Origin: Candidatus Woesearchaeota archaeon
GTDB taxonomy: Archaea; Nanobdellota; Nanobdellia; Pacearchaeales; GW2011-AR1
Reading direction: 5' to 3'
Assembly (NCBI GenBank): GCA_964498295.1
Contig: CAZCGJ010000001.1
Location: 1,669-65,668, forward strand
DNA: 64,000 nt
The notes beneath the pieces were generated by a model. That model was not told the DNA's origin. It searched no databases and was given only the letters and a program-made list of their open reading frames with translations. Numbering within the stretch: the stretch's first letter is position 1; each line of letters opens with the position of its first letter. This document shows positions 10,643-41,961 of this stretch, in pieces. The position numbers and the translations under genes were made by a program.

Positions 10643-12706
10643 TTACTTTTTACTCTTTTTAGAAGATAACTTAACAACCTTAATTGGCTTTGCATTTGCT
10701 GCAGCTTTTCTCTTCTTAGCGATAATCCAATAAGCTAATCCAATAACAATTAAGAATACAATGATTCCTAAAGACCATCTTCCTGCTGTTGTACCAATTA
10801 CATTACCTGTAATTGTATTTACAAAATTAGGGCTATTTGTTTGATTGTTCAATTCAGTAGTATTTGAAGTATTAGTATTAGAGATAGTACATGTTCTTAA
10901 TTCTAATGGCTTATCAGTTCTAGGAGCGCAATAGTTAGTAGGATATGAACAAGTTCTTGTTTGAGAACCAGAGCTACATTCAGTCCATTCAGTACAAGAC
11001 CATTGAGTATTACATGTTCCACCGCCACCGCCACCGCCAGCAGCTTGAGGAATGATTGGTGAAACAGCTGCTTCAACTTCAAATTCTGCAAGCTTAGTTT
11101 TATTCAACAAATCATTTGAACTATAAAGAGACAAATATAAGGTATAATTACCTGCAACTAATCCAGTAGGAACAGAATAATTTGTAGGTACATCTGTAGA
11201 ATCATTAGCAGTGAAATTAAATTCATTTACAATAGTATTTCCATTATAAAGTTGGAAGTTTAAAACCAAAGGATAAACTTCAGAACTAACATTCACAGTA
11301 ACGTTATCTCCAGGTATTGTTTCATTGTCAGCATCATCTGTAACATTTGCAATAACAGAAGTATTCACATAAATAGTAACAGTAACATTCTCACTATTTT
11401 TATCTAAATCAGTAATATAATATGTAAAATTATCAACACCTACAAAACCATTGTCAGGAGTATAAACAAAACTACCATCGCCATCAACACTAAGAGACCC
11501 ATTTTGAGTTGAATTAATAACATCAATAAATAACACATCGTCATTTGCATCATTATCATTAGCCAAAATACCTAAAGAAGCACTAACATTCAATTTCTTA
11601 TTTAAAGAAGTATAATAAGAATCATTATTTGCAACAGGATCAGTATTAGTTCCTATAACAAAAATACACTTAGCAGAATCGCTTTTATGATGGTCAGTCA
11701 ATTCATAAACGAAATAATCAACACCATTTGTTTTATTAGAAGTATAATTGAAACTACCATTTACTGAAAAACCAGTACTTATTGTTTTTAACTTACCGAA
11801 TTTAACATTTTCAATAATAGATAATTCTAATTCATCTCCATCGAAATCACTATCATTAGCTAAAACACCAGTAGCATTTGTAGTATTTACAGAATCTATA
11901 ATAGCATATCTATCTTCAACTGCAACAGGAGCAGAGTTATTAAAACTTAAATAAGAGTAAACAGAAGAAAGACTGTTAGTATGACCGTCACTAACCAAAT
12001 AAGTAAAATAATCTACGCCATGAAAGCCATTATTTGCAACATAAACAAAAGAACCGTTTGACGTAAAGTTTAAAGTACCTTTTTTAGCAGTATTTACCAA
12101 AACAGCCCAAACAGAATCCCCGTCTTCATCCCTCGGATCAAAGATTACGGCACCATCCTCATCTAAATTAGACCAATTATAAATCTCCACATCATTCTTT
12201 AAAACACTCCTACTGTTTGAAATACTATAATAACTACCCACAACATAAGAAGAAGGTAAAATGTATAAGTCTCCTAAAATAGAAGGAGCATTATTTCTTA
12301 AACCCAAATAAGCAGTAGCAATTGAACTATTTGAGTTACCGTTAGTAACATAATAAGTAAAAGAGTCTACACCTGGAAAGCCATTATTTGCAACATAAAC
12401 AAAAGAACCGTTTGACGTAAAGTTTAAAGTACCTTTTTTAGCAGTATTTACCAAAACAGCCCAAACAGAATTTCCATCGTCATCTTTAGGTGCAAAAACC
12501 CATTCATCGGGATTAGATCTATCAAAAACATCAACATCATTCGTTAAAACACTCCTACTGTTTGAAATGTTATAATTATCCCCGTATACATAAGAAGAAG
12601 GCAAAGTATAAATGTCATTTTGAACAGATATCTCAGAAGCAGAAACCAAACTAACCAATAAAAAAATAGTTAAAGCAAAAATACAAGACAATTTATTGAC
12701 TGACAT
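10643..12706 (-). CDS. Cell-surface adhesin with a signal peptide, at least four cadherin-like/VCBS-type beta-sandwich repeats, a Gly7 tract, a Cys-rich module and a C-terminal TM anchor with a basic tail
   Basis: N-terminal signal sequence; repeated LANDSD..DGD...GSF.YTP..GF.G.D.FTY motifs; C-terminal hydrophobic helix followed by KKRK...KKSKK. Confidence 0.7.
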   Translation of the reverse strand: MSVNKLSCIFALTIFLLVSLVSASEISVQNDIYTLPSSYVYGDNYNISNSRSVLTNDVDVFDRSNPDEWVFAPKDDDGNSVWAVLVNTAKKGTLNFTSNGSFVYVANNGFPGVDSFTYYVTNGNSNSSIATAYLGLRNNAPSILGDLYILPSSYVVGSYYSISNSRSVLKNDVEIYNWSNLDEDGAVIFDPRDEDGDSVWAVLVNTAKKGTLNFTSNGSFVYVANNGFHGVDYFTYLVSDGHTNSLSSVYSYLSFNNSAPVAVEDRYAIIDSVNTTNATGVLANDSDFDGDELELSIIENVKFGKLKTISTGFSVNGSFNYTSNKTNGVDYFVYELTDHHKSDSAKCIFVIGTNTDPVANNDSYYTSLNKKLNVSASLGILANDNDANDDVLFIDVINSTQNGSLSVDGDGSFVYTPDNGFVGVDNFTYYITDLDKNSENVTVTIYVNTSVIANVTDDADNETIPGDNVTVNVSSEVYPLVLNFQLYNGNTIVNEFNFTANDSTDVPTNYSVPTGLVAGNYTLYLSLYSSNDLLNKTKLAEFEVEAAVSPIIPQAAGGGGGGGTCNTQWSCTEWTECSSGSQTRTCSYPTNYCAPRTDKPLELRTCTISNTNTSNTTELNNQTNSPNFVNTITGNVIGTTAGRWSLGIIVFLIVIGLAYWIIAKKRKAAANAKPIKVVKLSSKKSKK

Positions 12707-13145: not shown

Positions 13146-15080
13146 GTGACATCAATAGAGCATATAACAAGCAAAGTTTATAACTATGAAAAAAAGCCAA
13201 ATACCAAAAAGATGGAAAATATTTTCAGTTCAAAGGAAGACACTCATGTTTTTGATTATCTTAAAATTTTAAAATCCCTAAATGAAATCCCGTTTCCAAT
13301 AGGAAAAACAACTTTAATAGACTTTTTAACCGGCGACTCAACAAACGCTTCAGTTTCAAAAAACAAACTAACAAGAAAAATAAATTTCAATAGTCTCAAA
13401 TTAACTAAAGACCAAACGAGAGAAATGATCGACGACATGATAAAACAAAGATTCGTTGAAGTCACAGGCACTCTTTCAAACCCATTTATTAAACTTTTAA
13501 GCTTAACATCAAAAGGACAAGCAGAACTTATTGCCCCTAAATATTATTTAAAGAAAACAGAAAAGCCAACCCTGGAGAAATTTGACATTAGCACAGAAGA
13601 AATATACGAATTTCAAGAGTTTGATAAATTCCTAGAAAACTTCAACGAAAATCAAAAGAAAGCAATAATCTCAAAAAATGAGAAAATAATGTGTATTGCT
13701 GGAGCAGGTTCTGGAAAAACAGCAGTCCTCACAAAAAGAATAGAATTCTTAATAAAACATAGGGGAGTAAATCCTTCAAAAATCCTAGCCATAACATTCA
13801 CAAGAAAAGCAAGACAAGAGATGAGAAATAGACTTCAAGAATTCGGAATCTCGACAAACGTTGAAACATTCAACTCATTAGGAGAACATATCCTCAACAA
13901 ATATGAAAATGAAATATATGGCAGGCCAATAAGATTAATTAGTACGGCAGATAAAATAACAATGATAAAAGAAGCCCTAGAAAGCCAAGGGAAAACACTT
14001 TTACAGGCTGTAGAGGAATACTTCACCCCTCAACAAAAAGCAAACAAAACTCCTGAAAGATTAATGTGGACTTTCATAAATGATTGTTTTACAATAATAG
14101 ATTACTTCAAATCGAAGAACACTCCAATCCCTGATTTCTCCAAAGATGCAGACACAAAACACTACTTGATTGCTTTAATGGTCCTAAGAACCTGTAACTA
14201 CGTTAAAACATATATGGAAACAGAGGGACTGAGAGATTTTTCAGACCAAGTTATTGACTCATTAAATTTCCTCAAAAAAAACCAAGACAGAGTCCCTAGA
14301 TTCGAACACATTCTTGTAGATGAATATCAAGACTTGAATTCTATGCAAGTAGATTTCATAAAACTACTAAACGCACCAAATATATTTGGAGTCGGAGATC
14401 CGAGGCAATCTATTTTTGGCTGGAGAGGCTCTGAAATAACACATATTACAAACTTCTCAAAAGAATATCCTGAATGCGAAGTCGTTCCTTTAGTTATGAA
14501 CTATAGAAGCACAAAAAGAATTGTAGAACTCATGAACTCTTCAATTAAACATCTTAAATTTCCAGATCTAGTTGCAAACAAAGAAAGTAAATCCCATGAA
14601 ATAGAAATAGAAAAATTTGAAACAGAAATGGACGAAATTCTTTCAGTACTTCAGAAAGTTCTAGAATCAAAATCTGAGAGACATGAGATATTTATTCTTG
14701 CAAGAACAAATAGGCAACTAGTAGAAATTTCAAAAATAATGAGAAATATGCAAATTCCTCACATTCTAAAAACAGAAGATGAAAATACACAGATAACTGC
14801 GAAAGAAGGAGAAGTAACTTTGGCAACAATCCACTCAATCAAAGGATTACAAGCAAAAGAAACTTTTGTAATTGGCTGCAACGTTCAAAACTTCCCTTGC
14901 AAGGCCTCAGATCACCCAATAATAGAAATGATCAAAATGGAAAACTACGACAAAGACGAAGAAGAAAAAAGATTATTCTACGTAGCAATTTCAAGAGCAA
15001 AAGAAAAATTATACCTTAGTTACTCCGGAACAAAAACAGACTATATAACTGACGAAATGGTTAAGATAATTAATGATTAA
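13146..15080 (+). CDS. UvrD/Rep/PcrA-family superfamily-1 DNA helicase with an N-terminal extension of about 150 aa
   Basis: Walker A CIAGAGSGKTAVL, motif Ia ILAITFTRKA, DEYQD (motif II), C-terminal helicase motifs (ATIHSIKGLQ, LFYVAISRAK). Confidence 0.75.
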   Translation: MTSIEHITSKVYNYEKKPNTKKMENIFSSKEDTHVFDYLKILKSLNEIPFPIGKTTLIDFLTGDSTNASVSKNKLTRKINFNSLKLTKDQTREMIDDMIKQRFVEVTGTLSNPFIKLLSLTSKGQAELIAPKYYLKKTEKPTLEKFDISTEEIYEFQEFDKFLENFNENQKKAIISKNEKIMCIAGAGSGKTAVLTKRIEFLIKHRGVNPSKILAITFTRKARQEMRNRLQEFGISTNVETFNSLGEHILNKYENEIYGRPIRLISTADKITMIKEALESQGKTLLQAVEEYFTPQQKANKTPERLMWTFINDCFTIIDYFKSKNTPIPDFSKDADTKHYLIALMVLRTCNYVKTYMETEGLRDFSDQVIDSLNFLKKNQDRVPRFEHILVDEYQDLNSMQVDFIKLLNAPNIFGVGDPRQSIFGWRGSEITHITNFSKEYPECEVVPLVMNYRSTKRIVELMNSSIKHLKFPDLVANKESKSHEIEIEKFETEMDEILSVLQKVLESKSERHEIFILARTNRQLVEISKIMRNMQIPHILKTEDENTQITAKEGEVTLATIHSIKGLQAKETFVIGCNVQNFPCKASDHPIIEMIKMENYDKDEEEKRLFYVAISRAKEKLYLSYSGTKTDYITDEMVKIIND

Positions 15081-15994
15081 GAAAAAGCAGTCAAAGGCTC
15101 TATACAACCAGTAGGCGGAATAAATACTGACTCGTCTATATTCTCAACAGAAATATTAAAAAAAGAAGTCTTAAAACTATCCCCTTCTATAAAGGTCTCC
15201 ATTTGTAAAGGCACACAAAATTTAGTACTAAAGTAATCCAAACTTATCTCAGCATCTCCACCCAAGCCAATTTTAGCTTTATCCATATAAGATAAATGAC
15301 TAGCAGTCATCTTCAAAGCTTCCTGACCTTTAAAAACAACTTTTTCATCACGAACATAATTCTTTATATAAAAAGCATAATCAAGTAAATACACGCTCTC
15401 CAAAGGATTATGCCCATAAATATTTTCAGAATCATCTACCATCTCATCTTCTTTTTTCACAAGTACACAAACGTCGCCATTAGAAGTATAGCTTGCAGTC
15501 TCCCTATTTTCAGAGATAGTCCAATACCTAGCACTCACTCCGCCTAACATAGATTCAGAATATACAATTCTTTTAACCTTGTTTTCCAAAATCCAATACT
15601 TAGAGATGCCACTACCTCCAGTACCAGAACCTTCAACTTCATAAGAATACTTTTCAAAATCAATTACTCTCAAACACCCGCAAGAACCATTAGTAGTATT
15701 AAACCCTATAGCAAGATTGCTCCCATTGCATAAAGAATTATTTCCAATTTTATTAGAAGAAATATTAGACAAGTTATTGCTATCAGAGAAACCAGTCTCA
15801 TTTTTTAAAGAAGGATTATTCGAAAAAGCTATTTTACTCTCTTCTAAAGAACTGTTTGAGGTAGCTGCAAGCATATTCTCTCCAGTATCTTGATTTAAAT
15901 TATCAGAAAATAAGAAAACCCAAGAAGCTCCTGCAATCAGAACTAAAGCTAGAATAATACCTGAAATAACTAAAATACTTCCCTTTTTGTACAT
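15077..15994 (-). CDS. Hypothetical secreted or membrane-anchored protein (N-terminal TM/signal anchor)
   Basis: Hydrophobic N-terminus ILVISGIILALVLIAGASWVFLF; Asn/Ser-rich ectodomain. Confidence 0.45.
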   Translation of the reverse strand: MYKKGSILVISGIILALVLIAGASWVFLFSDNLNQDTGENMLAATSNSSLEESKIAFSNNPSLKNETGFSDSNNLSNISSNKIGNNSLCNGSNLAIGFNTTNGSCGCLRVIDFEKYSYEVEGSGTGGSGISKYWILENKVKRIVYSESMLGGVSARYWTISENRETASYTSNGDVCVLVKKEDEMVDDSENIYGHNPLESVYLLDYAFYIKNYVRDEKVVFKGQEALKMTASHLSYMDKAKIGLGGDAEISLDYFSTKFCVPLQMETFIEGDSFKTSFFNISVENIDESVFIPPTGCIEPLTAFS

Positions 15995-16463: not shown

Positions 16464-18386
16464 TTAATTAGTTCTTCTTATAATTAAAACAATAAGTAAT
16501 AATAGTACAATTATTGCAATAAGTAAAATCATATTAAATATCAATTGATTTGTTTTACCGGAGATATAACTATCCATATTAAATCCTTCATTTACAGAAC
16601 CATTTTGGTAATTAAGAGCAATAACAAAATCATCATCCATTGAAACAGAATCTGCAGTTTCATTATAATCAAAGTCATTCACAGGTGCACGAGTATGACT
16701 TCTACAGGCATCGCAATCTGGATCCTTATCGCAATCAACTCCTTGAGAAACATTTACTATAAAAGAAACACTGTCCACGCCAATATTACTAGAACTATCG
16801 TTTGCATAAGCAATAAGAGTATAATTTCCATTTGATAAATTCATAAGATAGCTATAATTATAATTATAACGAACACCATTTAGACTATACCAAACATCAT
16901 CTACAACAACATCATCAACTGCAAGAATAGTTAGTCTAACTAAATTAGAAGTATAAATTTGATTTACCGGGGAAATTATTGTGACATTAGGTCCAAGATT
17001 ATCTGAAGTATTATTAGTACCATTTGAAGAAGTATTTATAATAAAATGAGTATGCACAGAACTTAAACTTCCACAACTATCATTTGCATAAGCAACAAGA
17101 GTATAGTTTCCATTTGATAAATTTGCAATTGTAGATCCAGAATAACTAAAGTTAACTCCATTAAGAGTATACCAAACATGAGAAAGATTTGAATCTAAAG
17201 CAGAAATACTAACAGTTACCAAAGTGTTATTATATATTCTAGAGACTGGAGAAACTATTGTCAAAACAGGAGCAGTATTTCCAATACAAGAATTATTTGT
17301 AGTATTTGTGTTATTGCAATTAGTACAAATAGTAGAATTTGTTAAAACAGTCACATTTGGATTGTTTAATATAAAACTAGCATTATTACCTAAATAAGTT
17401 GTGTAATTTACATAAGCAATTTCATTCAAATGAGCAAGACTAGAATTGTAAACAATAACATTAAAGCTAAATGACTTCGACTCATTAATTTTTAATAATC
17501 CAGCATTGCAAGTCATCTTTCTTGTGTTTAGAGTATAATTACATCCAAAAGGAAGAGAAATAGGCACAACACCTAATGCCAAAAAATCTGTAATAATGAT
17601 ATTTTCTCCAGCAATAACCGTTATTTCCTTACTCCTAACATCATCTACAATCCAATGAGCAATATCATTCATCGTATGAGGATCGCTATCAGTAGGGTAA
17701 TGCCAGTAAATACCATTGCTAATATTAGAGATATTCTTAAGCAAATTAAATCCAGGAGTATTAAATTCTTCTCCAATACCAATTGTATAAATAGAAATAT
17801 TTTTTGCAGCAGCGAGATTTGCTTGTTGAAGAGCATAGGCTTTTGCATCGGCAGGAAGATTTGCCTTTCCATCAGAAATTAAAACAATAACTTTTGAATT
17901 CATAGTATTATTAAATTGTTCAGAAGCTTTCTTTATTGCTTCTCCAATATTAGTATTGCCTGAAGCAGAAATTGTATCGATATTGTTCTTTACAGAAACA
18001 TAATCTTTAGTTAAATTGTTTTTCACGAAAGGATTAGTATTGAAATAAACAAGACCCACCCTATCGTAAAGAGAGTCTAAAATGTTAACTATGGCCTTTC
18101 CAGCTAATTTTGCCTGAGAAATTTTATTCCCACACATGCTACATGAATTATCAATAACTAAAATAATATCCATAGGAACTCTAACATTGTTCATATTTCC
18201 GGCCCCATTAACAGTCAAAGTAATAGTTGCATTATCTCCAACATATAAAATATTAGGTGAAACAGACTTATTGCCTTCCAAATAAGGAACTGCAGAAATA
18301 GAGCTTAAAGAAATAATAATCGCTGCTACAAGCACTAGCAATCCTGCCAAAAGCTTCCATTGAATTTTGTGTGACTTTCTCTTCAT
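16464..18386 (-). CDS. Surface protein with a von Willebrand factor A (MIDAS) domain, tandem Ig-like domains and a C-terminal TM anchor; last gene of the pilin-like cluster
   Basis: Signal peptide; vWA motifs DIILVIDNSCSM (DxSxS), VIVLISDG, IYTIGIGE; duplicated NLSNGNYTL(V/I)AYANDS Ig-like modules; C-terminal hydrophobic stretch plus RRTN. Confidence 0.75.
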   Translation of the reverse strand: MKRKSHKIQWKLLAGLLVLVAAIIISLSSISAVPYLEGNKSVSPNILYVGDNATITLTVNGAGNMNNVRVPMDIILVIDNSCSMCGNKISQAKLAGKAIVNILDSLYDRVGLVYFNTNPFVKNNLTKDYVSVKNNIDTISASGNTNIGEAIKKASEQFNNTMNSKVIVLISDGKANLPADAKAYALQQANLAAAKNISIYTIGIGEEFNTPGFNLLKNISNISNGIYWHYPTDSDPHTMNDIAHWIVDDVRSKEITVIAGENIIITDFLALGVVPISLPFGCNYTLNTRKMTCNAGLLKINESKSFSFNVIVYNSSLAHLNEIAYVNYTTYLGNNASFILNNPNVTVLTNSTICTNCNNTNTTNNSCIGNTAPVLTIVSPVSRIYNNTLVTVSISALDSNLSHVWYTLNGVNFSYSGSTIANLSNGNYTLVAYANDSCGSLSSVHTHFIINTSSNGTNNTSDNLGPNVTIISPVNQIYTSNLVRLTILAVDDVVVDDVWYSLNGVRYNYNYSYLMNLSNGNYTLIAYANDSSSNIGVDSVSFIVNVSQGVDCDKDPDCDACRSHTRAPVNDFDYNETADSVSMDDDFVIALNYQNGSVNEGFNMDSYISGKTNQLIFNMILLIAIIVLLLLIVLIIRRTN

Positions 18387-18565
18387 GGTATTCTATCACA
18401 CACTCTCTTCACTCGGGTTAAACTAAATAATAGTTATTATTCAGTAACAACAACCCTATTTAAATCTTTTGATTTTAGAACTACTATCAAGTTACATAAA
18501 AAATAAAAAATAAACACAACCAACTAGAGACAAAAAATTAAGAAATAAAAACCTTCGAAAAATTC

Positions 18566-19117
18566 TTAAGCCTTAAGAGCTAAAGAATAAATATTTCCCT
18601 GCTCTACTGTAGGTAAAGTAGCAATATCTAAACCGAACTTAGTTACATTAATTGACTTATCACATTTCATACCGTTAATATATTCTGTCCAACTAGTACT
18701 ATCTCCAGAATGAGATCTATTGAACTCAAAACATTTATTATAAGCCATTTGATTTTGAACCGTAAGGTTACAAGACTCCAATACCTTCTGAGGAACTTCT
18801 TCAGTTGTAAAAGAAGCTAAATTATTTTGCTTTAAGAAAGCACAATTAGCATAACTCTTTTTACCGCCGACAATTAAAGGATATTTAAAATTACCACAAT
18901 ATGCAGCAAGCTTTGCTTCATCAGTAGAAGCCAACTTCAAATCCTTTTGACAAGATAAAATCATATTTGTAGTCTCAATAGCTTGAGCATCGATAGTAGT
19001 ATTTATTTTAAAGAAAAATGCATATGTGGCATAAGCAATAACAGCTGCAACAATAAGCACAAGAACAAAAACAACTATTGCTCCGCCAGATTCCTCAGCT
19101 CCTTTTTTATTAATCAT
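18566..19117 (-). CDS. Archaeal type IV pilin-like protein (class III signal peptide)
   Basis: Start moved to the internal Met giving MINKKGAEESGG followed by a 20-aa hydrophobic helix; Cys-containing ectodomain. Confidence 0.6.
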   Translation of the reverse strand: MINKKGAEESGGAIVVFVLVLIVAAVIAYATYAFFFKINTTIDAQAIETTNMILSCQKDLKLASTDEAKLAAYCGNFKYPLIVGGKKSYANCAFLKQNNLASFTTEEVPQKVLESCNLTVQNQMAYNKCFEFNRSHSGDSTSWTEYINGMKCDKSINVTKFGLDIATLPTVEQGNIYSLALKA

Positions 19118-19151
19118 CTTTTTCTTAGAACAAACCCATTTATAAATCTTT

Positions 19152-19859
19152 TTATGAACTTCCAGATTCAGTATAGTCAAAAGATAATAAGAATTCAATC
19201 TTTTTCATTTCTTTGTCAATATAATACTCATCGCCACTAACTAACTTTAGCTGTTTCTCCTTAATCACACTTATGACAAAGTTAGGAAGTTCCTGCTCGA
19301 GACAAACCTTGACTTCACTATCTTTAACAGAACCTTCATTACATACAGTACGAATAAGCATAATTTTATCTAAGCTTGGCAAACCGAAATTATCAAACCC
19401 TACAGAAACATTTAATTCAGAAGAATAAGTAATATTCAAATTAGGATAAACTCTTTTAGCACCCCAAGGAGAAAGACTTGTATAAACTTTTTTACCATCA
19501 AAATAAAATAAAGTCACACCTGAAAACAATTTTTTTAAATCTTCTGGTACAGAGCTCTCAGTCTGCTTAAAACGAACCTTTAAATCTTCTTCAAAAACCT
19601 TGTTTAAATCTGCAGAAGAACTAATCTTTTCAGAATTTTCAGATAAAATTTTTTGATAACTACTTAAGAAATCCTCGGTTAATTTAATATAAAGAGTATT
19701 TTCATATCCTTGTTTTTCAGAGTAGATATTACTCACTGCATTAAAATTCTCTGAAACTTTTGAAGACTGATTAGATATTGCAAATATGATATAGATAAAC
19801 AACAAAAGAGTCATGATCACCATAACACCCACTTCGATAGATGCCTTCTTATTTATCAT
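19152..19859 (-). CDS. Archaeal type IV pilin-like protein (class III signal peptide)
   Basis: N-terminus MINKKA|SIEVGVMVIMTLLLFIYIIFAI. Confidence 0.6.
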   Translation of the reverse strand: MINKKASIEVGVMVIMTLLLFIYIIFAISNQSSKVSENFNAVSNIYSEKQGYENTLYIKLTEDFLSSYQKILSENSEKISSSADLNKVFEEDLKVRFKQTESSVPEDLKKLFSGVTLFYFDGKKVYTSLSPWGAKRVYPNLNITYSSELNVSVGFDNFGLPSLDKIMLIRTVCNEGSVKDSEVKVCLEQELPNFVISVIKEKQLKLVSGDEYYIDKEMKKIEFLLSFDYTESGSS

Positions 19860-20283
19860 AATTGCTCCTCCTTATTACTGTAATAGAAAGATATCCTTTT
19901 TCACAATGACTGCACGGAAAATAAGTTTTATCTGCAAAAAAAGGAACAGAACCTAAAGGATAAAGGTTAAAGGTATAGTTATTAGGAATAGATAATTTTG
20001 GAAGATTAACCATAAACCCTCCAGTAACAGTATTTGTATACTTATAAGCATCATATAGCACTTTTCCTTTACTACTACTATTGAAATCGCTAATAACTGC
20101 ATAAGCTGCAACTCTTTGAGATTCGGAAGAATAAACATTAGAGTCATAATTAATAACAACGGACTTCTGACTAAATTTTCCAGCAATTGAAAAGAACACT
20201 GCAAAGATAACTATTAGCGCAATAGCAATAAGTCCTGCTGCCCAAGACAATCCTTCTCCTGCTGCACGTTTATTTATAATCAC
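19849..20283 (-). CDS. Archaeal type IV pilin-like protein
   Basis: N-terminus MIINKRAAGEG|LSWAAGLIAIALIVIFAVFF; overlaps the neighbouring genes by a few nt (operon). Confidence 0.55.
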   Translation of the reverse strand: MIINKRAAGEGLSWAAGLIAIALIVIFAVFFSIAGKFSQKSVVINYDSNVYSSESQRVAAYAVISDFNSSSKGKVLYDAYKYTNTVTGGFMVNLPKLSIPNNYTFNLYPLGSVPFFADKTYFPCSHCEKGYLSITVIRRSNYDK

Positions 20284-20783
20284 TTTCTCACCCCGTTATT
20301 ATCAGATGAAACCCACCCGACAATTTTAACATTAATAATAGAAGATCCATTGAAATAAAGATAAGTTTCATTTCTAAAAAGACACGAAATTACATTTTCA
20401 GTTTCAGTAGGATAAATAACTGCACAAGTTTGTTTCTTCTCAACTCTTTCAAGAACATCCCCTCCAACAAATGATTTAATTTCAACACCGGATTCATTTC
20501 TAAAACTAAAATCAAAATAGAGATGATAATTATCAATAATTGTTTTATTTAAATCACATTCAGAATACAAATCAAATTTAGAGTAAAAAGTATCATTATT
20601 AATAAACCCGTTCGAAACAAAACAATTCATTAAACGATCATACAGAACTTGAGTTTCATAACCTCGAATATCTACAGGAGTATTGACATATGAAGAAAGT
20701 ACAACCGTTGCCCCTCCAGCAATCAAAACCAAATAAAGTAAAAACATACCTGCATTTATTTTTTCACTAGCTTTTTTATCCAT
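20280..20783 (-). CDS. Membrane-anchored extracellular protein, possibly pilin-like
   Basis: N-terminus MDKKASEKINAG followed by a hydrophobic helix; less canonical cleavage motif. Confidence 0.4.
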   Translation of the reverse strand: MDKKASEKINAGMFLLYLVLIAGGATVVLSSYVNTPVDIRGYETQVLYDRLMNCFVSNGFINNDTFYSKFDLYSECDLNKTIIDNYHLYFDFSFRNESGVEIKSFVGGDVLERVEKKQTCAVIYPTETENVISCLFRNETYLYFNGSSIINVKIVGWVSSDNNGVRK

Positions 20784-20897
20784 TTTACAAAACTCTCCTA
20801 AGATTTATTTTATCAATTGAGAGTTTGTAAGGTAAAAATTTCATAGATTTACCACTAACATTCTTGACTGCTGCGACATAAGGGAGCATTATGCAAG

Positions 20898-21332
20898 TCA
20901 TTTTTTCACCTCAATAGAATAAAGAACTTTTTTATCAGTTGAAATTGCACTAGTAGTTACTAAATAATCACTGAAATAATTTTGAACATATCCGGCTGTA
21001 GCTCCCAAACGCAGTGAAACCATAACGCTGTGATTTAAAGGATCAATTTTAATTAAGTCCCCATAAGAACTTTCCTTCTCACCAGACCTAATAGCTATTT
21101 TATTAAGCTCAGTCACATCCAACACAAAAGTAGTATTTGGTTGAGCGCCATCAATAAGCAATGCAATTTTTTTTGCATAGATTTCTTCTTGAATCAAAGC
21201 CCCGCTCAAAGTATTTCTTGCAAATAAAAAGAAAACAACCATAAAAGCCAAAAGTAAAACGACAGAAATAATTGTAGGCCATGCAATTTCCTCACTATCT
21301 CCTTTTTTTCCAAGATTAAAATTAAACCTCAT
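20898..21332 (-). CDS. Archaeal type IV pilin-like protein
   Basis: N-terminal basic segment ...LGKKG|DSEEIAWPTIISVVLLLAFMVVFFLFA. Confidence 0.5.
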   Translation of the reverse strand: MRFNFNLGKKGDSEEIAWPTIISVVLLLAFMVVFFLFARNTLSGALIQEEIYAKKIALLIDGAQPNTTFVLDVTELNKIAIRSGEKESSYGDLIKIDPLNHSVMVSLRLGATAGYVQNYFSDYLVTTSAISTDKKVLYSIEVKK

Positions 21333-21370
21333 AAGAAAACAAACGAAGAGAGAATTATAAACTTAACGAC

Positions 21371-22387
21371 TTAAAGATTCTCAAAAGAATCTATGTTCCA
21401 TTGTGAAAAACCTTCTAAACTATAATTAGTTAACATTAATCCCCCAACATGATTACTACAAGGATCCGTATTTTTAGGATCATTACAAAAAGAACTATCT
21501 ACGAACCATTTCTTGAAAATAGAATCGCCAGCATTTGAACCGAGAACAAATCCTCCTCCAATAAGAATTCTGGCGCCCAATCCTTTTGTAAAATAAGCAC
21601 CAACAGCACCAGCACTCGCACCCGCAACCCCTCCAATTCTTTGAGCAAAACTAGTAAGAGTAGATTCAATATAAACAATAGACTTAACACCCTCTAAAGA
21701 AGTATTATCATTTAAAGTTGCACTCTTGACGTCTGAAACGACTAATGAGCCGAACAACTCCTGAGCGCTCTGACCCTCATAAGTCCCCCTTAAATAATCC
21801 ATATAACTATAATTATTATTAGGGACTTTATGGCTAACCATATAAAACATTAAGCCAGTAATATTCCTAATATCATCTTCATTTCCAGAGACACCATCTT
21901 TCCCATCTAAAACACTGTTATCGAACTCAATCTTATCACAAATAATTCCTTTAGAAGTAAAAGTCTTTGAATCAAACTCTCTAGAAAATATTTGTAATTT
22001 GCCCTCTCCGAACATTCCCCAGCAATCGGCCATTTCCCTAGATAAGAACATTTTTATTTGATCTTTCCTAGCTTCAACAGTTGTACCCGTCAATTTCATC
22101 GTATTGAATTCTTTTCCTAACTGAGTACAGTTTCCACGGCCAGACTTAGCAGTAACACAAATTTTAGTAGTTTTACATCTAATACTAATAGCATCTTTTG
22201 CGTTTACGCTAACACCTCCGACCTCACTAGGAACCGTAGCTCTCAAAATAATAGAAGCCTGACAAGCAGATCGATCAATAGTATCGCTAGTTGGAAAAAA
22301 GATTGCAATAACCACAAACACAACTAAAGTCATAACAGCAATAATAATACTTACAACAAACCAATTTATATCTCCTCGTTTATTCAT
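21371..22387 (-). CDS. Archaeal type IV pilin-like protein with a Cys-rich ectodomain
   Basis: N-terminus MNKRG|DINWFVVSIIIAVMTLVVFVVIAIFF. Confidence 0.55.
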   Translation of the reverse strand: MNKRGDINWFVVSIIIAVMTLVVFVVIAIFFPTSDTIDRSACQASIILRATVPSEVGGVSVNAKDAISIRCKTTKICVTAKSGRGNCTQLGKEFNTMKLTGTTVEARKDQIKMFLSREMADCWGMFGEGKLQIFSREFDSKTFTSKGIICDKIEFDNSVLDGKDGVSGNEDDIRNITGLMFYMVSHKVPNNNYSYMDYLRGTYEGQSAQELFGSLVVSDVKSATLNDNTSLEGVKSIVYIESTLTSFAQRIGGVAGASAGAVGAYFTKGLGARILIGGGFVLGSNAGDSIFKKWFVDSSFCNDPKNTDPCSNHVGGLMLTNYSLEGFSQWNIDSFENL

Positions 22388-22560
22388 AAAAAAAAGAGCA
22401 TATATCTCTTTTTATATTTATCCTAGCTTAGTAAAATAAGTGGCAATATAATAAACACCATAAGCCAATAACGCCAAAAGTAAAATTAAACCAATCTTCA
22501 CAACTAAGCTTTCTCCAAGATTATCTGCCATCTAAAACATGAGCAAAAAGAGTTAATAAA

Positions 22561-23904
22561 TTATTCCATACTTCTAAGAGAAACAGTATTTTGACCATTA
22601 GGATAACTAAAAACAAAATAGTCCCCGGTAATAGGATAAGAACCATCTAATATAAAAGAAACATTATACAAATAAACCAAGGAACTGGGATTAAAATTTT
22701 CAATCTCGGGCTCACCAAACAATAAATAAGAGTAAGACTCTAAAGGATTGCCTTCATGATAAAAAGTAATATTATACTTATTTACCTGGTTTTTTAAATT
22801 AGACAAATACTCCTTAAATGAATCCTTCGCACAATTTGTTTCAAATATAAAATAAAATTGATCATATCCTAACTTATTACTATAACTCTCATAACCTATG
22901 TTTTTTATACTACACGAAACATCAGTTTTATCTAACTTAAAAGAAAGACCTTTCCATTTTTGAATAGGGCACCTACTTCCACCACCCTCTAAATATGTCT
23001 TTGAGCAATCCACAGTATCCCACTCAACACTAATCTCTAAATCACATTTTGTAGAGTCCTTACCTGCTAAAACGTCTTCATTCAAAAAACAAGAAAAGTT
23101 TGCACTAGTATCTTGTATTGATAAAATATTACATTCAGGAACAGAATCATGAGGGACATACTTAACATTCTGTAAAAAAGAATCATCACAGACAAAATCA
23201 AAACGAATAACAGAATCTCTAAGTAATTCTAATTTACAATCTTTGAAGCTAGGATTGATATTTCTAACTAAAAATCTTCCATCAGATTTTATAAGTGTTT
23301 GATCATAGTATATAGAATCTGTAGAAAAAGAACAACCAGGATTTTGGGAACCATAAATAGTCCTAATAGCACCACCAAGACTACTTGGATAAAGTTTTAC
23401 CACACTAGATCCTTTATCTACTTGCAACCCGTATGGGACTTGAGTAATTTGCAAGCAATTAGCAATAGAACCCCAACTATTTACACAGCTAGTAGAAATA
23501 CTTGCATCTAAATTAATAGACTTACAAATATTTTGTGCTTTACAAATACCAAAAACTTTATTTTGTAAAACAGGATCAACAATAACACTCGAAGAGTATA
23601 GCTTACTTATTGGAGAACAAAAACAAACCTCTGTATTATTTGCCATAATAACCCATCCTTTAGGACTTTCAATAAAAACCTCCTTTGTTTGACCATCCGT
23701 CATTTTTCCAATCTCATAAACAATAGTATCAAGAGTATTTCTTGCCTGCTCCTCTTTCAAATTACTAGCAACAATCTTCCCCAATGCAAATAAAATAAAT
23801 AAAATAAAAATAAAAACGCCAATTCCAATTACTAATTTTACTATTTCTTCAACAGCTAAAGTTCCGCCCCTCTTTGACCTCATAAAAATAAGAAAAGAAC
23901 ACAA
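22561..23904 (-). CDS. Large (447 aa) pilin-like protein with a Cys-rich ectodomain; first gene of the co-directional cluster
   Basis: N-terminus ...MRSKRG|GTLAVEEIVKLVIGIGVFIFILFILFAL; the true start may be the Met at 23883. Confidence 0.55.
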   Translation of the reverse strand: MCSFLIFMRSKRGGTLAVEEIVKLVIGIGVFIFILFILFALGKIVASNLKEEQARNTLDTIVYEIGKMTDGQTKEVFIESPKGWVIMANNTEVCFCSPISKLYSSSVIVDPVLQNKVFGICKAQNICKSINLDASISTSCVNSWGSIANCLQITQVPYGLQVDKGSSVVKLYPSSLGGAIRTIYGSQNPGCSFSTDSIYYDQTLIKSDGRFLVRNINPSFKDCKLELLRDSVIRFDFVCDDSFLQNVKYVPHDSVPECNILSIQDTSANFSCFLNEDVLAGKDSTKCDLEISVEWDTVDCSKTYLEGGGSRCPIQKWKGLSFKLDKTDVSCSIKNIGYESYSNKLGYDQFYFIFETNCAKDSFKEYLSNLKNQVNKYNITFYHEGNPLESYSYLLFGEPEIENFNPSSLVYLYNVSFILDGSYPITGDYFVFSYPNGQNTVSLRSME

Positions 23905-23955
23905 ATTATAAACTTAACTAAAAATATATAAATAATAAAGATTAAGAAAAAAATA

Positions 23956-25287
23956 ATGAAAGGATTAGAAAACCTACTCAAACGAACAGGAAGATATCTC
24001 GCGTCTACAATTTCTGCAATAGCCCTTTATTCTTCCGCTCAAGAACCTGCTAAAATAGAAGTAGCAAAAGATGGAAGTTGGAAAAAAACCTCGGACATAA
24101 CTCTTTATTTTCAAAGTACTACCGGTTCGCAAGGAAGAGATCCTTCAAAAAACCCATATAACCAATCTAAAGCAATGGCGTGTTTTGTAGGAAGAAATAA
24201 TCCGGATGGAAGCCTGACAATAACTTATTTAACAACTGATCCTGAAAACCCTTCAAAAGATGCAGCATATGCCTCGTTTAATTCATCATATGTATCTTTT
24301 CTTTCCAGCCAAAATTTGGAAGCAAGAGTTTCACAGAGAACAATTCTTATGGATGCTGGAGGAAATATCTCTTTCGAAAAAGCACAGCTTAAAGAGGAAG
24401 TAACAAACCCTCTGATCTGGGTCGGTCAAAAAATATATGAAAAAGCAGATGAATATGACCCTGTAAAAAAAATAGGAGACGAAAGCGGATTTTTTAGCGG
24501 AGGCACATTAGATATAATCAGAAACTATGCCGATTCATTTGAAAAAACCTCTAATGAAGGTTTAGAAAAAGTAAAGGGAAAAGAAATAAGCATAAACCAA
24601 ATACCTAAGAGATCTAGAACTTCTTGGATAACTACGACAAAAAAAGAAATAGGTACAGAAACTACGCTTGTATTCTTAGGAGATAAAGAAGGAAAAACAA
24701 AAATTAGTGTTTATTATGACATCGGTCTAATGAAAGGAAGAGATACGGGAAGAACAAAAGCCTATACAGGTTTAATAGAAGTAAAAACATCGGCAAAAGA
24801 ACAAACACAAACTTGTTTAGAAAAAGGAACAGGTACAAGCAATCCCTTAGAGGGGTTTTGGAGAGAAAAAGAAAATAAGAACAGTCTAGTATATATCACT
24901 CCAAAAGGAATTTTTATTTCTCTTCCAGAAATGCTATTTGAAAATAAATATACTTTAATGGCAATAGCTAATAATTCTAAAAAAGAAAAAGAGATATATG
25001 TATCTAGAATAAAAGATAGCAAGTTCAATATTGATATTAGAGAAACTGGAAAAGTAGAACAGATAAGCAACCAACAAATAAAAGCAGCCTGTATAATTGC
25101 AAACGCACCAGATATGGAAATAACCTTAGAAAGAGCTCCGGAATTAAACAGAGGACTAGAAGAAATCACTCAATCAGAAACACAATCTGGAAATGATCAG
25201 GCAAAACCAATAGAAAAGCCAAAATCTACACCGCCAAAACAAACAACAGGCCCTTCCTATGATATTAGAAATTGGATGAAGAAATAA
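23956..25287 (+). CDS. Hypothetical secreted protein (443 aa) inserted between two pilin-like transcription units
   Basis: Signal-peptide-like N-terminus; no recognisable domains. Confidence 0.45.
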   Translation: MKGLENLLKRTGRYLASTISAIALYSSAQEPAKIEVAKDGSWKKTSDITLYFQSTTGSQGRDPSKNPYNQSKAMACFVGRNNPDGSLTITYLTTDPENPSKDAAYASFNSSYVSFLSSQNLEARVSQRTILMDAGGNISFEKAQLKEEVTNPLIWVGQKIYEKADEYDPVKKIGDESGFFSGGTLDIIRNYADSFEKTSNEGLEKVKGKEISINQIPKRSRTSWITTTKKEIGTETTLVFLGDKEGKTKISVYYDIGLMKGRDTGRTKAYTGLIEVKTSAKEQTQTCLEKGTGTSNPLEGFWREKENKNSLVYITPKGIFISLPEMLFENKYTLMAIANNSKKEKEIYVSRIKDSKFNIDIRETGKVEQISNQQIKAACIIANAPDMEITLERAPELNRGLEEITQSETQSGNDQAKPIEKPKSTPPKQTTGPSYDIRNWMKK

Positions 25288-25324
25288 TTAGAAACAAACT
25301 AAATCTACAGCATTAAAAGAATAA

Positions 25325-25924
25325 TTATTTTTTAGAAACAACTTTTTGATAAAAATGAAATTGCCCATTTGAATCTAAGATAAAGGTATTCACTTCGGTA
25401 GGAAGTTTAAACACATTAGAGCAAGAACTAGGCAAAGTATGTTGACCCACAATAATATCACAAATAAAAGTATCGCCTATCCCTTCTGTACTAAAAAGAG
25501 AAACCTTTGCACGAGGAAAAAAAGAATATTTCTTAAAATAATACTCTTGCATTTCAGGTCCGGCAGGCCAATTTGCTAAAATACAATAAGAAGTACCTAG
25601 AGACCACCAACAATCTTTATTAGAAACATTGTAAGAAACCTGCCATCCAGAAACTTCAACTAAACTTTCATCATTTTGGATGACAATAGCTCCATTCTGT
25701 TCAATAACACCAGGAACAAGCTCATCAGTGCCGTTAATTTCATTGTATTTTTCTCCCTGACTAGTATTCATGCTAGGGAGCCATCCTTTGATTATATCTC
25801 CCCAACTTGCTTTCATAAAAATAGGAGTAAGAATCAAAACAATTAGCAATAGTCCTAGAAACAAATACATCATTTCAGTCCAACCCATTTCAAAACCTTT
25901 TTTGTTTTTTATAATAGACCTCAT
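25325..25924 (-). CDS. Archaeal type IV pilin-like protein
   Basis: N-terminus MRSIIKNKKG|FEMGWTEMMYLFLGLLLIVLIL; its ATG overlaps the stop of the upstream small pilin ORF (ATGA). Confidence 0.6.
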   Translation of the reverse strand: MRSIIKNKKGFEMGWTEMMYLFLGLLLIVLILTPIFMKASWGDIIKGWLPSMNTSQGEKYNEINGTDELVPGVIEQNGAIVIQNDESLVEVSGWQVSYNVSNKDCWWSLGTSYCILANWPAGPEMQEYYFKKYSFFPRAKVSLFSTEGIGDTFICDIIVGQHTLPSSCSNVFKLPTEVNTFILDSNGQFHFYQKVVSKK

Positions 25925-26088
25925 TTAAAACAACCCCCGAAACGCATACAATCATAAAACTTAGATAAGTAATTAGAAATAGTATCCCTAGCAAAAAACA
26001 AAATAAGCGCTGCAACAACCAAACCAATTATTGCAAGTATCATCCAAATACCTTGTAAAGTTATTTGACCTTTTTTTATCAACCTCAT
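25921..26088 (-). CDS. Small (55 aa) archaeal pilin-like protein, absent from the ORF track; candidate major pilin
   Basis: Hand translation gives MRLIKKG|QITLQGIWMILAIIGLVVAALILFFARDTISNYLSKFYDCMRFGGCFK: a class-III signal motif with Gln at +1, one long hydrophobic helix and a short tail. Confidence 0.6.
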   Translation of the reverse strand: MRLIKKGQITLQGIWMILAIIGLVVAALILFFARDTISNYLSKFYDCMRFGGCFK

Positions 26089-41029: not shown

Positions 41030-41961
41030 TTTAGGTACCCACTAATAAATAGTAACTTAGGTACCGAAAGATATATAAAGAATAGGTACCTAATTATATT
41101 ATGAAAGAAATAATTTGTCCGCATTGCAAAGAAAAAGAGATTAAGAAAGATGGAGTAAGAACAACAGAAAAAAGAGGGAAAATTCAAAGATACAAATGTA
41201 ACCTTTGCAATTATCGATTTGTCGTCGATGATGGCTTTTACAGAATGAGAAATAATGAAAGTATTATCACAATGTCAATCGACATGTATATTTCTAATTT
41301 GTCAAGTAGAAAAATGAGAAATCAATTAAGCAGACATTTAAACACAAAAATAAGTCATATGAGTATTCTTGATTGGGTAAGAAAATATACTTTAAAAGTT
41401 AGTAAATTTGTTGATAAATTAGGTTACAACATGGGAAATAGTTTCTATGCTGATGAAACCTTAATTGATTGTGGGGGAAGAGATGATAGATTTTGGTGTT
41501 GCATTGATTGGGATACTCGATTAATTACTGGAGTTCATTATAGTTTATCTGGTAATCCAATAGAAGCACAAAAATTCTTATTTAAGTCAATTCAAAAGGG
41601 AAAACCTAAATTCATCCAGACAGATGGTGGAGTTTTCTATCCTAAAGCATTTAGAAAACTCTTCTACTCTAATAAGATTGGTGGTTTAACAGTCGAGCAT
41701 AAGATACAAAATGCAAGTGTTACTAAAATACATAATTATAGAATAGAAACTGTTTTTATGAAGATTAAAGACAGAGTAGACGACTTTAGAGGATTGAAAG
41801 CATTATGGTCTGCCCCAATACTTATGAATGCTTTAATAATTCAACATAATTTCATAGAAGCTCATACAACCTTAGATGAAGTTCCATGCAATAGAGCAGG
41901 ACAAGAGTTAAACTTGGGAGAAAATAGATGGCTAGGATTAATTCATTTATCCAGTAGGTAA
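41030..41961 (+). mobile_element. IS-like element: DDE transposase gene preceded by three TAGGTACC direct repeats; clear terminal inverted repeats not found
   Basis: Single transposase ORF; motif TAGGTACC repeated at about 41030, 41059 and 41085, all within 70 nt upstream of the ATG. Confidence 0.4.
41101..41961 (+). CDS. DDE transposase with an N-terminal zinc ribbon (IS6- or IS1595-like)
   Basis: CPHC...CNLC zinc ribbon; DDE-type motifs ADETLIDC, CIDWDTRLITG, FIQTDGGVFY, NYRIETVFMKIKDR. Confidence 0.6.
   Translation: MKEIICPHCKEKEIKKDGVRTTEKRGKIQRYKCNLCNYRFVVDDGFYRMRNNESIITMSIDMYISNLSSRKMRNQLSRHLNTKISHMSILDWVRKYTLKVSKFVDKLGYNMGNSFYADETLIDCGGRDDRFWCCIDWDTRLITGVHYSLSGNPIEAQKFLFKSIQKGKPKFIQTDGGVFYPKAFRKLFYSNKIGGLTVEHKIQNASVTKIHNYRIETVFMKIKDRVDDFRGLKALWSAPILMNALIIQHNFIEAHTTLDEVPCNRAGQELNLGENRWLGLIHLSSR

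Follow-up and report, generated by a model that had tools for sequence, protein, structure and literature searches.

The Pilin-Like Gene Cluster

The stretch of DNA analyzed here (64,000 nucleotides from contig CAZCGJ010000001.1 of a Candidatus Woesearchaeota archaeon, referred to as the window) is AT-rich, with a GC content of 31-33%. It carries housekeeping genes (coding for a family-B DNA polymerase, a FEN-1-like nuclease, a tRNA-intron endonuclease, Alba, S17e and TFIIB-like proteins) and a cluster of nine minus-strand genes that code for pilin-like proteins (g55, g199, g440, g338, g144a, g167, g144b, g235 and g183; Table 1). Together with a gene for a membrane mini-protein of 37 amino acids (aa), mini37, these genes probably constitute a subunit module, belonging to a type IV filament (TFF) system conserved in Woesearchaeota and Pacearchaeota, and the machinery would be encoded elsewhere. 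All nine minus-strand open reading frames (ORFs) proposed in a first-pass annotation are found where it placed them in the ORF list of the window. The likely start of the 447-aa ORF (g440) is the ATG at 23883 (MRSKRGG...) and not the TTG at 23904, judging from the N-termini of its orthologues (MDSKRG.., MIAKKG..), and the ATG at 19117 (MINKKG) as start of g183 (183 aa) is likewise backed by orthologue N-termini. The metagenome-assembled genomes (MAGs) that hold relatives of the window genes carry the labels Woesearchaeota, Pacearchaeota or Nanoarchaeota; LFW-170_1, a relative with the same type of arrangement, is classified in GTDB as Nanoarchaeota; Pacearchaeales; ARS1160. The organism accordingly belongs to the DPANN archaea.

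A Canonical Locus in Related Archaea

A scan with g338, taking one genome per species, identified 165 relatives in Woesearchaeota and Pacearchaeota, and 80 loci were fetched with 10-kb flanks. ORFs of the related loci were called, and families assigned, with in-house scripts. The profiles of the different pilin-like families cross-react via their shared N-termini and an iterative hidden Markov model (HMM) drifted; families were assigned by one-iteration HMMs and best-hit rules, and the label s52 on the gene after g167 is a product of cross-talk between profiles. The canonical order in these loci is ATPase, a variable part, platform, s52 (approximately 50 aa), s54 (approximately 54 aa), g440, g338, g144a, g167, a further gene (x), g235, g183 and peptidase, with RadA farther on. 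The complete set of three machinery genes occurs in 38 of the 80 loci and at least one of the three in 68, and the 12 loci without any comprise three short contigs, L042 and eight loci of the window's own clade.

The ATPase (762 aa) matches Pfam T2SSE with 53.9 bits (cut-off 24.9) and contains a Walker A motif (AGTRSSGKTS), a GEVR motif and a His-box, its nearest solved relatives being the Archaeoglobus fulgidus GspE (3e-26) and CpaF (8e-24), ahead of FlaI. Its N-terminal extension of approximately 300 residues has no Pfam match. The peptidase, a membrane protein of approximately 272 aa, scores 48.5 bits against Peptidase_A24 (cut-off 26.5), which identifies it as a type IV leader peptidase, and has both catalytic-type Asp motifs (D23 and GGD), with FlaK as nearest solved relative (2.7e-7). 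The third component, a protein of approximately 725 aa with about nine transmembrane (TM) segments and 70% mean column identity, is probably the platform; a profile search against the PDB gave no match for it. Conservation is much stronger in the ATPase and in this polytopic protein (L016-L088; for example L056:813-3101 and L056:6835-9024) than in the adjoining pilin-like genes, which show 25-30% identity.

The window genes were mapped onto this locus by direct phmmer matches, profile-profile comparison with hhalign and synteny (Table 1). Direct phmmer matches to g440, g338, g144a and g167 were found in 37-88 ORFs, and the other genes were placed by profile comparison, with the exception of the clade-specific g199. 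The window thus holds ten members of the system in nearly canonical order, collinear with a block that is flanked elsewhere by the T2SSE ATPase, the polytopic protein and the A24 peptidase, which supports the earlier proposal of a structural module whose machinery lies at a distance. In the window's lineage, the subunit block adjoins the tRNA-intron endonuclease gene. As judged from sequence, ten unannotated gene families appear to be part of a type IV filament system that is conserved over the 80 species-representative loci.

The first-pass annotation had described a complete structural and adhesive module, but the conserved mini37 had been overlooked in the gap between g440 and g338. This mini-protein occurs at the syntenic position in L001, L005, L007, L009, L011 and L015 (35-100% identity) and matches the s54 family with 91.6% in hhalign, while no other family exceeds 11%. 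Its direct score against the s54 HMM is not significant (E 0.11), so that membership rests on synteny and profile-profile comparison. With its acidic N-terminus and no basic leader, mini37 looks like a hydrophobic helix in its mature form or like a membrane peptide of N-out orientation. Sister genomes encode, between mini37 and g338, a protein of 568-727 aa (L005:8249-9955, L011:7922-9934 and a 727-aa ORF in L009) with the classical archaeal pilin N-terminus G/VSAVVATVLIIMITV (the slash marks the putative cleavage site throughout) and signals of a Glug/NosD-type beta-helix; this protein is missing in the window, where mini37 and g338 are separated by a 30-nt spacer.

Table 1. Features of the window discussed in the text, with the evidence that links the cluster genes to canonical loci of related archaea.
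Feature	Position	Strand	Product	Correspondence in canonical loci
g55	25921..26088	-	55 aa, MRLIKKG/QITLQ..; short pilin-like protein without globular domain, two C-terminal Cys	hhalign 91.8% over 40 columns to s52, first gene after the platform
g199	25325..25924	-	pilin-like, MRSIIKNKKG/FEMGW..; 4-nt overlap with g55	clade-specific; no counterpart beyond N-terminal similarity
443-aa gene	23956..25287	+	opposite strand, splits the cluster; secreted-looking, no Pfam match	
g440	22561..23883	-	pilin-like, MRSKRG/GTLAVEEIVK..; large extension with 16 Cys	37 direct phmmer matches; hhalign 98.8% over 116 columns to the gene preceding g338
mini37	22418..22531	-	37-aa membrane mini-protein, MADNLGESLVVKIGLILLLALLAYGVYYIATYFTKLG	
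g338	21371..22387	-	MNKRG/DINWF..; best-conserved member of the block	
g144a	20898..21332	-	pilin-like, ..LGKKG/DSEEIAWP..	77 direct phmmer matches, always directly after g338
g167	20280..20783	-	pilin-like, MDKKA/SEKINAG..; 4 conserved Cys	
g144b	19849..20283	-	pilin-like, MIINKRA/AGEGLSW..; GTG start overlaps g167 stop	weak match to positional equivalent, hhalign 57%
g235	19152..19859	-	pilin-like, MINKKA/SIEVG..; 11-nt overlap with g144b	hhalign 93.4% over 63 columns to the second gene after g167
g183	18566..19117	-	pilin-like, MINKKG/AEESGG..; 6 Cys	hhalign 94.0% over 89 columns to the last pilin-like gene ahead of the peptidase (third after g167)
vWA640	16464..18386	-	surface protein with Sec-type signal, vWA, two Big_7 and C-terminal TM segment; neighbour of the pilin block, not a pilin	
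305-aa gene	15077..15994	-	MYKKG/SILVISG..; weak Ependymin match	
cadherin-like gene	10643..12706	-	Pfam Cadherin_5 (1.6e-30) and Big_9 (6e-43)	
transposase gene	41101..41961	+	IS240-type DDE transposase, Pfam DDE_Tnp_IS240 (1.9e-11)	
1947-aa gene	46233..52076	-	giant protein with Sec-type signal	
g616	52073..53923	-	616 aa, MIKRQKRG/QVTVFIIIG..; 4-nt overlap with the 1947-aa gene	

A Conserved Class III-Like Signal

The N-termini of the nine proteins had been likened to archaeal class III signal peptides, and all nine contain a K-[KR]-[GA] motif placed 0-4 residues ahead of the first hydrophobic segment (approximately 20 residues). Among the other window proteins with an N-terminal hydrophobic segment the motif is found in 3 of 18 (5 of 18 for the looser [KR][GA]), an enrichment in the cluster with a one-sided Fisher p of approximately 5e-5 (computed by hand, 9/9 versus 3/18); the remaining secreted proteins of the window have signals of the usual Sec type, in which a short hydrophobic core leads up to an ..A/x site. 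In the ten families, as collected from 88 related loci, [KR][GA] precedes the hydrophobic domain in 436 of 463 non-identical members, against a background of at most 27% in other N-terminally hydrophobic ORFs. The consensus over the 436 proteins reads N(58%)-K(84%)-[K58/R41]-[G79/A19], with Q/E/D or an aliphatic residue between this motif and the hydrophobic helix, so that position -1 is G or A in 98%, -2 is K or R in 99% and -3 is K in 84%. The K-[KR]-[GA] motif is therefore neither due to chance nor specific to the window.

Known substrates of archaeal prepilin peptidases have G, A or S at -1, a charged residue at -2 and the site ahead of the H-domain (PMC4371748), an arrangement seen in all nine window proteins and in the family consensus. 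An H-domain of approximately 20 residues directly after the putative site is apparent both in a hydropathy scan and in the N-terminal helices of AlphaFold2 (AF2) models. In the clade that lacks nearby machinery genes K-[KR]-[GA] is preserved in 63 of 64 orthologue cases, and the codons of the signal vary among the orthologues (GGA/GGT/GGC/GGG, GCA/GCT/GCC/GCG, AAA/AAG/AGA/CGT...); this combination of codon turnover with a retained motif indicates purifying selection on the site. The shared motif had also been taken as a sign of a paralogous family, an idea that an all-against-all BLASTP comparison does not sustain: no similarity extends past the first 35 residues or so, the signal alone being common, and each pilin-like gene of the window has its own series of orthologues across genomes.

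Subunit Module, Signal Anchors or Relic

Several observations weigh against the identification of the cluster as a filament module. None of the nine pilin-like proteins has a Pfam or NCBIfam match at E<=1 with the sole exception of g183, which shows a weak match to the N-terminal part of Arch_flagellin (E 0.32), and a strict FlaFind-like pattern is fitted by g55 only. In the eight cluster proteins other than g55, the putative site is followed by 1-6 polar or acidic residues. The protein regarded as platform reaches no more than weak T2SSF scores, in 3 of 25 members, and neither the 64-kb window nor the 10-kb flanks of the eight clade loci contain a machinery gene. Pfam Class_IIIsignal, Pilin_N and the NCBIfam pilin models were matched by none of the window proteins, and 118 family members gave sub-threshold matches to Flp1_like and Flp_Fap only.

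Some of these points would be explained if the N-termini were plain, uncleaved signal anchors obeying the positive-inside rule and the genes coded for unrelated bitopic proteins that merely cluster, as the missing family matches, the polar or acidic residues after G/A, the extra hydrophobic Gly-rich region of g338 and the non-diagnostic results of fold searches might suggest. This is very unlikely, since a signal anchor needs positive charge and not a fixed G/A, yet the residues at -1 and -3 are held at the frequencies given above across ten families and through codon turnover, other secreted proteins of the genome have clearly different Sec signals, and the cluster shares its gene order with loci that have a T2SSE ATPase on one side and an A24 prepilin peptidase on the other.

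The absence of machinery bears on a different alternative. The first-pass annotation had reported no assembly ATPase, platform protein or prepilin peptidase in the window, and Pfam scans of 20 other ORFs and family HMMs run on the six-frame translation agree with it. Three ATPase homologues (P0129, P0145 and P0083) were considered as machinery of sister MAGs and rejected, all of them coming from other genomes with canonical loci. The cluster could be a relic in which ATPase, platform and peptidase have been lost and the pilin-like genes are decaying or have taken a filament-independent role, a scenario that would also fit the presence of a vWA gene at the canonical position of the peptidase. 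It is very unlikely, however, in view of genes that are intact and conserved in the clade down to 35% identity, with cleavage motif, Cys residues and gene order retained. Moreover, the large clade proteins with the pilin N-terminus G/VSAVVATVLIIMITV, together with the purifying selection on the site, imply that a working class III peptidase would be present in the lineage, and the separation of pilin loci from ATPase/TadC loci is common in archaea (PMC4858521). A subunit module served by machinery from another locus thus remains the preferred reading.

The Predicted Subunits

g55, whose mature form would have approximately 48 aa and whose orthologues show KKGQ[ILV], is likely the major filament subunit, like the short pilins of Epd and Flp systems, because of this length, its KG/QI site and the lack of a globular domain. 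The genes at fixed canonical positions (g440, g338, g144a, g167, g235 and g183) as well as g144b and g199 most likely code for minor or accessory subunits that could act in priming or at the tip or base. The orthologues of g440 in canonical loci are of approximately 170 aa. In two members of the g440 family from Pacearchaeota (L077:8673-9767 and L082:7827-8939) the pilin-like N-terminus is followed by an SLT lytic transglycosylase domain (Pfam 2.3e-22), which hints at a filament-associated subunit that would attack peptidoglycan. The subunits have conserved Cys residues, even in number, as well as N-glycosylation sequons, consistent with the extracellular character that filament subunits would have.

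In g338, for which 34 close homologues were compared, G5 (the putative -1 residue) is invariant from 23% to 89% identity and the Cys residues are conserved. A long N-terminal helix is followed by an alpha/beta domain with 8 Cys, a moderately hydrophobic Gly-rich segment (residues ~251-311, GGVAGASAGAVGAYF..ARILIGGGFVLGSNAG), which is glycine-zipper-like, of low AF2 confidence and unusual for a pilin-like protein, and a strongly conserved C-terminus (GGLxLTxYSxEGF..IDSFEN). Its AF2 model, of moderate quality like that of g167 (pLDDT 67.7, pTM 0.70), has a helix at 6-51, a confident alpha/beta core and a disordered region at 251-311; that of g167 (pLDDT 73.9, pTM 0.63) has helices at 3-33 and 40-60, an N-terminal helical part of approximately 55 residues, and then a four-stranded antiparallel sheet. 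Owing to the Gly-rich hydrophobic C-terminal part of g338 and the missing leader of mini37, both probably stay in the membrane as accessory components and are not built into the filament.

Predicted Transcription Units

The gene overlaps had been taken as evidence of operons. Overlaps are indeed found at three junctions (g55/g199, 4 nt; g167/g144b, 4 nt; g144b/g235, 11 nt), but the cluster is probably not one operon, as it contains several internal TATA-like boxes and is split by the opposite-strand 443-aa gene. In g440, g144a and g183 the ATG is preceded, at a distance of exactly 29-30 nt, by a TTTATAA or TTTAAAT box (TTTATAA at -29 in these three genes). Similar A/T boxes precede g55 (TTTATTAA, about 30 nt upstream), g338 and g167, and g199, g144b and g235, which overlap the gene before them, have none; the motif occurs in 3.8% of random 27-nt windows. 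The fixed distance from TATA box to start codon suggests that leaderless mRNAs may be used in this organism. The likely transcription units would be g55-g199, g440, (mini37-)g338, g144a, g167-g144b-g235, g183 and the vWA gene. TTTATAA, TTTAAAT or TTTATAT boxes 29-30 nt before an ATG are found elsewhere in the window as well, at g305, g127, a 137-aa gene and g616, and the starts with a TATA-like box at this distance are 23883, 21332, 19117, 15994, 13093, 16048 and 53923.

The vWA Protein and Other Neighbouring Genes

The predicted vWA/MIDAS protein downstream of the cluster (vWA640) is confirmed by a Pfam VWA match of 1.3e-18 and one to Big_7, with the DxSxS motif (DNSCS) at residue 79. It also has two Ig-like (Big_7) domains and 35 N-glycosylation sequons. 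Of its TM segments, at 8 and 612, the C-terminal one is followed by a basic tail. Its signal is of the Sec/signal peptidase I type (MKRKSHKIQWKLLAGLLVLVAAIIISLSSISA/VP; ..SFISA and ..LVLA in orthologues), and none of the orthologues has a [KR][GA] site. The gene lies 179 nt downstream of g183 and occupies this position in the nearest relatives only (L005, L007, L009 and L010), where canonical loci hold the peptidase gene. The Sec-type signal, the C-terminal anchor, the lack of [KR][GA] and an adjacency limited to a close subclade speak against the role first proposed for it, a tip adhesin terminating a pilin operon.

Pilus adhesins that carry a vWA domain include PilY1, TadG and the Streptococcus sanguinis modular pilin PilB. 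TadG has been remarked on in this connection (PMC4858521). vWA640 is like them in having a vWA domain with an intact MIDAS encoded beside pilin genes, and unlike them in its Sec-type signal and C-terminal TM anchor. As a modular pilin or tip adhesin it was rejected for want of a pilin-like N-terminus and of conserved co-occurrence with minor pilins, and the combination of Sec signal, C-terminal TM anchor and missing pilin-like N-terminus means that it could not enter a filament as a modular pilin. vWA640 is thus predicted to be an independently exported, C-terminally anchored and heavily glycosylated cell-surface protein, which may be an adhesin and whose link to the filament is one of adjacency only.

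The 443-aa gene is probably outside the filament module; it is found at the same position in L005, L009, L010 and L011 and is absent from L007 and L008. The cadherin-like adhesin that had been noted near the cluster is borne out by its Pfam matches (Table 1). A 305-aa protein with a class III-like N-terminus is encoded near the cluster and has no homologue in the fetched loci. Outside the cluster, g616 has a predicted class III signal with an EpdB/C-like KGQV-type site and overlaps the gene of a giant protein of 1947 aa; neither of these two proteins has a Pfam match or a homologue in the fetched loci. A transposase gene completes the list in Table 1.

Proposed Assembly and Function

In the proposed mechanism, each of the nine class III signal proteins would insert into the membrane, an A24-family prepilin peptidase would cut after the G/A of N-K-[KR]-[GA], and the exposed hydrophobic N-terminal helix would pack into the filament core, assembly being driven by a GspE/CpaF-like secretion ATPase and a polytopic platform protein. 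As the subunit block would be uncoupled from the ATPase, platform and peptidase genes in this lineage, the machinery would act in trans from another locus.

Adhesion is a plausible function. The same machinery could have another job, forming a short pseudopilus or an uptake or secretion device (comparable to a type II secretion system pseudopilus or to the Com (comG) competence pilus) for the uptake of DNA or nutrients or for penetration of the host envelope instead of a long adhesive pilus. This is somewhat unlikely. The ATPase-platform-pilins layout resembles comGA-GG, and three observations fit such a device just as well as an adhesive pilus. These are the fixed set of approximately ten distinct subunit families, whose order is conserved as in GspG-K or ComGC-GG, with no expanding paralogous major pilins, the SLT domain of the two g440-family members, and the extreme conservation of the ATPase (76-91% identity in the top 120 of 4625 matches) and of the platform (70% by column), which suggests a near-essential function in reduced genomes. 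In contrast, the loci inspected contain no ComEC/ComEA-like or secretin-like gene, and a short subunit like g55/s52 is typical of the adhesive Tad and Epd pili, which it resembles as a Flp/EpdE-like protein.

A farther-reaching proposal, that of a DPANN-specific filament class, is unlikely as a whole. Such a class would comprise approximately ten non-paralogous subunit families in fixed order, with a leaderless mini-protein of 37-55 aa, the Gly-rich membrane-associated g338, a 762-aa ATPase and a platform of approximately 725 aa not captured by T2SSF models; almost all Woesearchaeota and Pacearchaeota would have it, and it would serve as a host-contact or uptake apparatus, not as a generic adhesion pilus, with the subunits uncoupled from the motor in the window's lineage. 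Woesearchaeota and Pacearchaeota are abundant, uncultivated and thought to be host-dependent, and a filament bears on the question of how they attach to a host or feed. One groundwater study reported that DPANN genomes lack components of type IV pili, which is why the system seems to be under-recognised. The N-K-[KR]-[GA] motif and the ten subunit families could become profile models for annotating such loci, including those without an adjacent ATPase.

Comparison with Known Filament Systems

The Epd pilus of Methanococcus maripaludis offers several parallels. An Epd-type TFF (system 1) has been reported in some DPANN archaea, and the bacterial Tad system is thought to derive from archaeal Epd-like systems. 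The major pilin EpdE is cut at K-G/Q-I and has no globular domain, and its peptidase EppA requires a strict Q at +1 (PMC4371748). The window resembles this system in its multi-gene cluster with several distinct class III pilins, in g55, a short major pilin without globular domain whose site (KKG/QITL) contains the KGQI string of EpdE, and in g616, which lies outside the cluster and has a KRG/QV site like EpdB/C. The ATPase of canonical DPANN loci, with archaeal GspE and CpaF as closer relatives than FlaI, also agrees with it. Unlike in the Epd system, Q is found at +1 in 17% of the DPANN family members, the peptidase is a protein of approximately 272 aa with FlaK as nearest relative instead of the large EppA, one platform gene of approximately 725 aa takes the place of two, and in the window the machinery is unlinked to the pilin genes.

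With the bacterial Tad/Flp system the canonical loci share a major subunit of approximately 50 aa followed by larger pilin-like proteins and an ATPase related to CpaF (8e-24). The matches of s52 and s54 members to Flp_Fap and Flp1_like (14-16 bits) are far below the cut-offs of 32-33, and the DPANN system differs from Tad/Flp in having no G/xxxxEY Flp motif, no TadE-like domain match and no secretin/RcpA. Similar in kind are the islands of diverse "dark matter" pilins inferred in DPANN loci with TadC and a secretion ATPase (Makarova, Wolf and Koonin 2019, Fig. 2A; PMC6393860), which were recognised by like reasoning in a like kind of locus; the window copy differs from them in lacking the ATPase/TadC signature genes, and searches based on signature genes would miss it because the ATPase is not adjacent. 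The mini-protein without leader, the Gly-rich g338 and the one large platform set the predicted composition apart from those of the Epd, Aap, Ups and Tad systems that have been characterised. Machines of this kind are already known; new are subunit families for which no models exist and their uncoupling from the motor.

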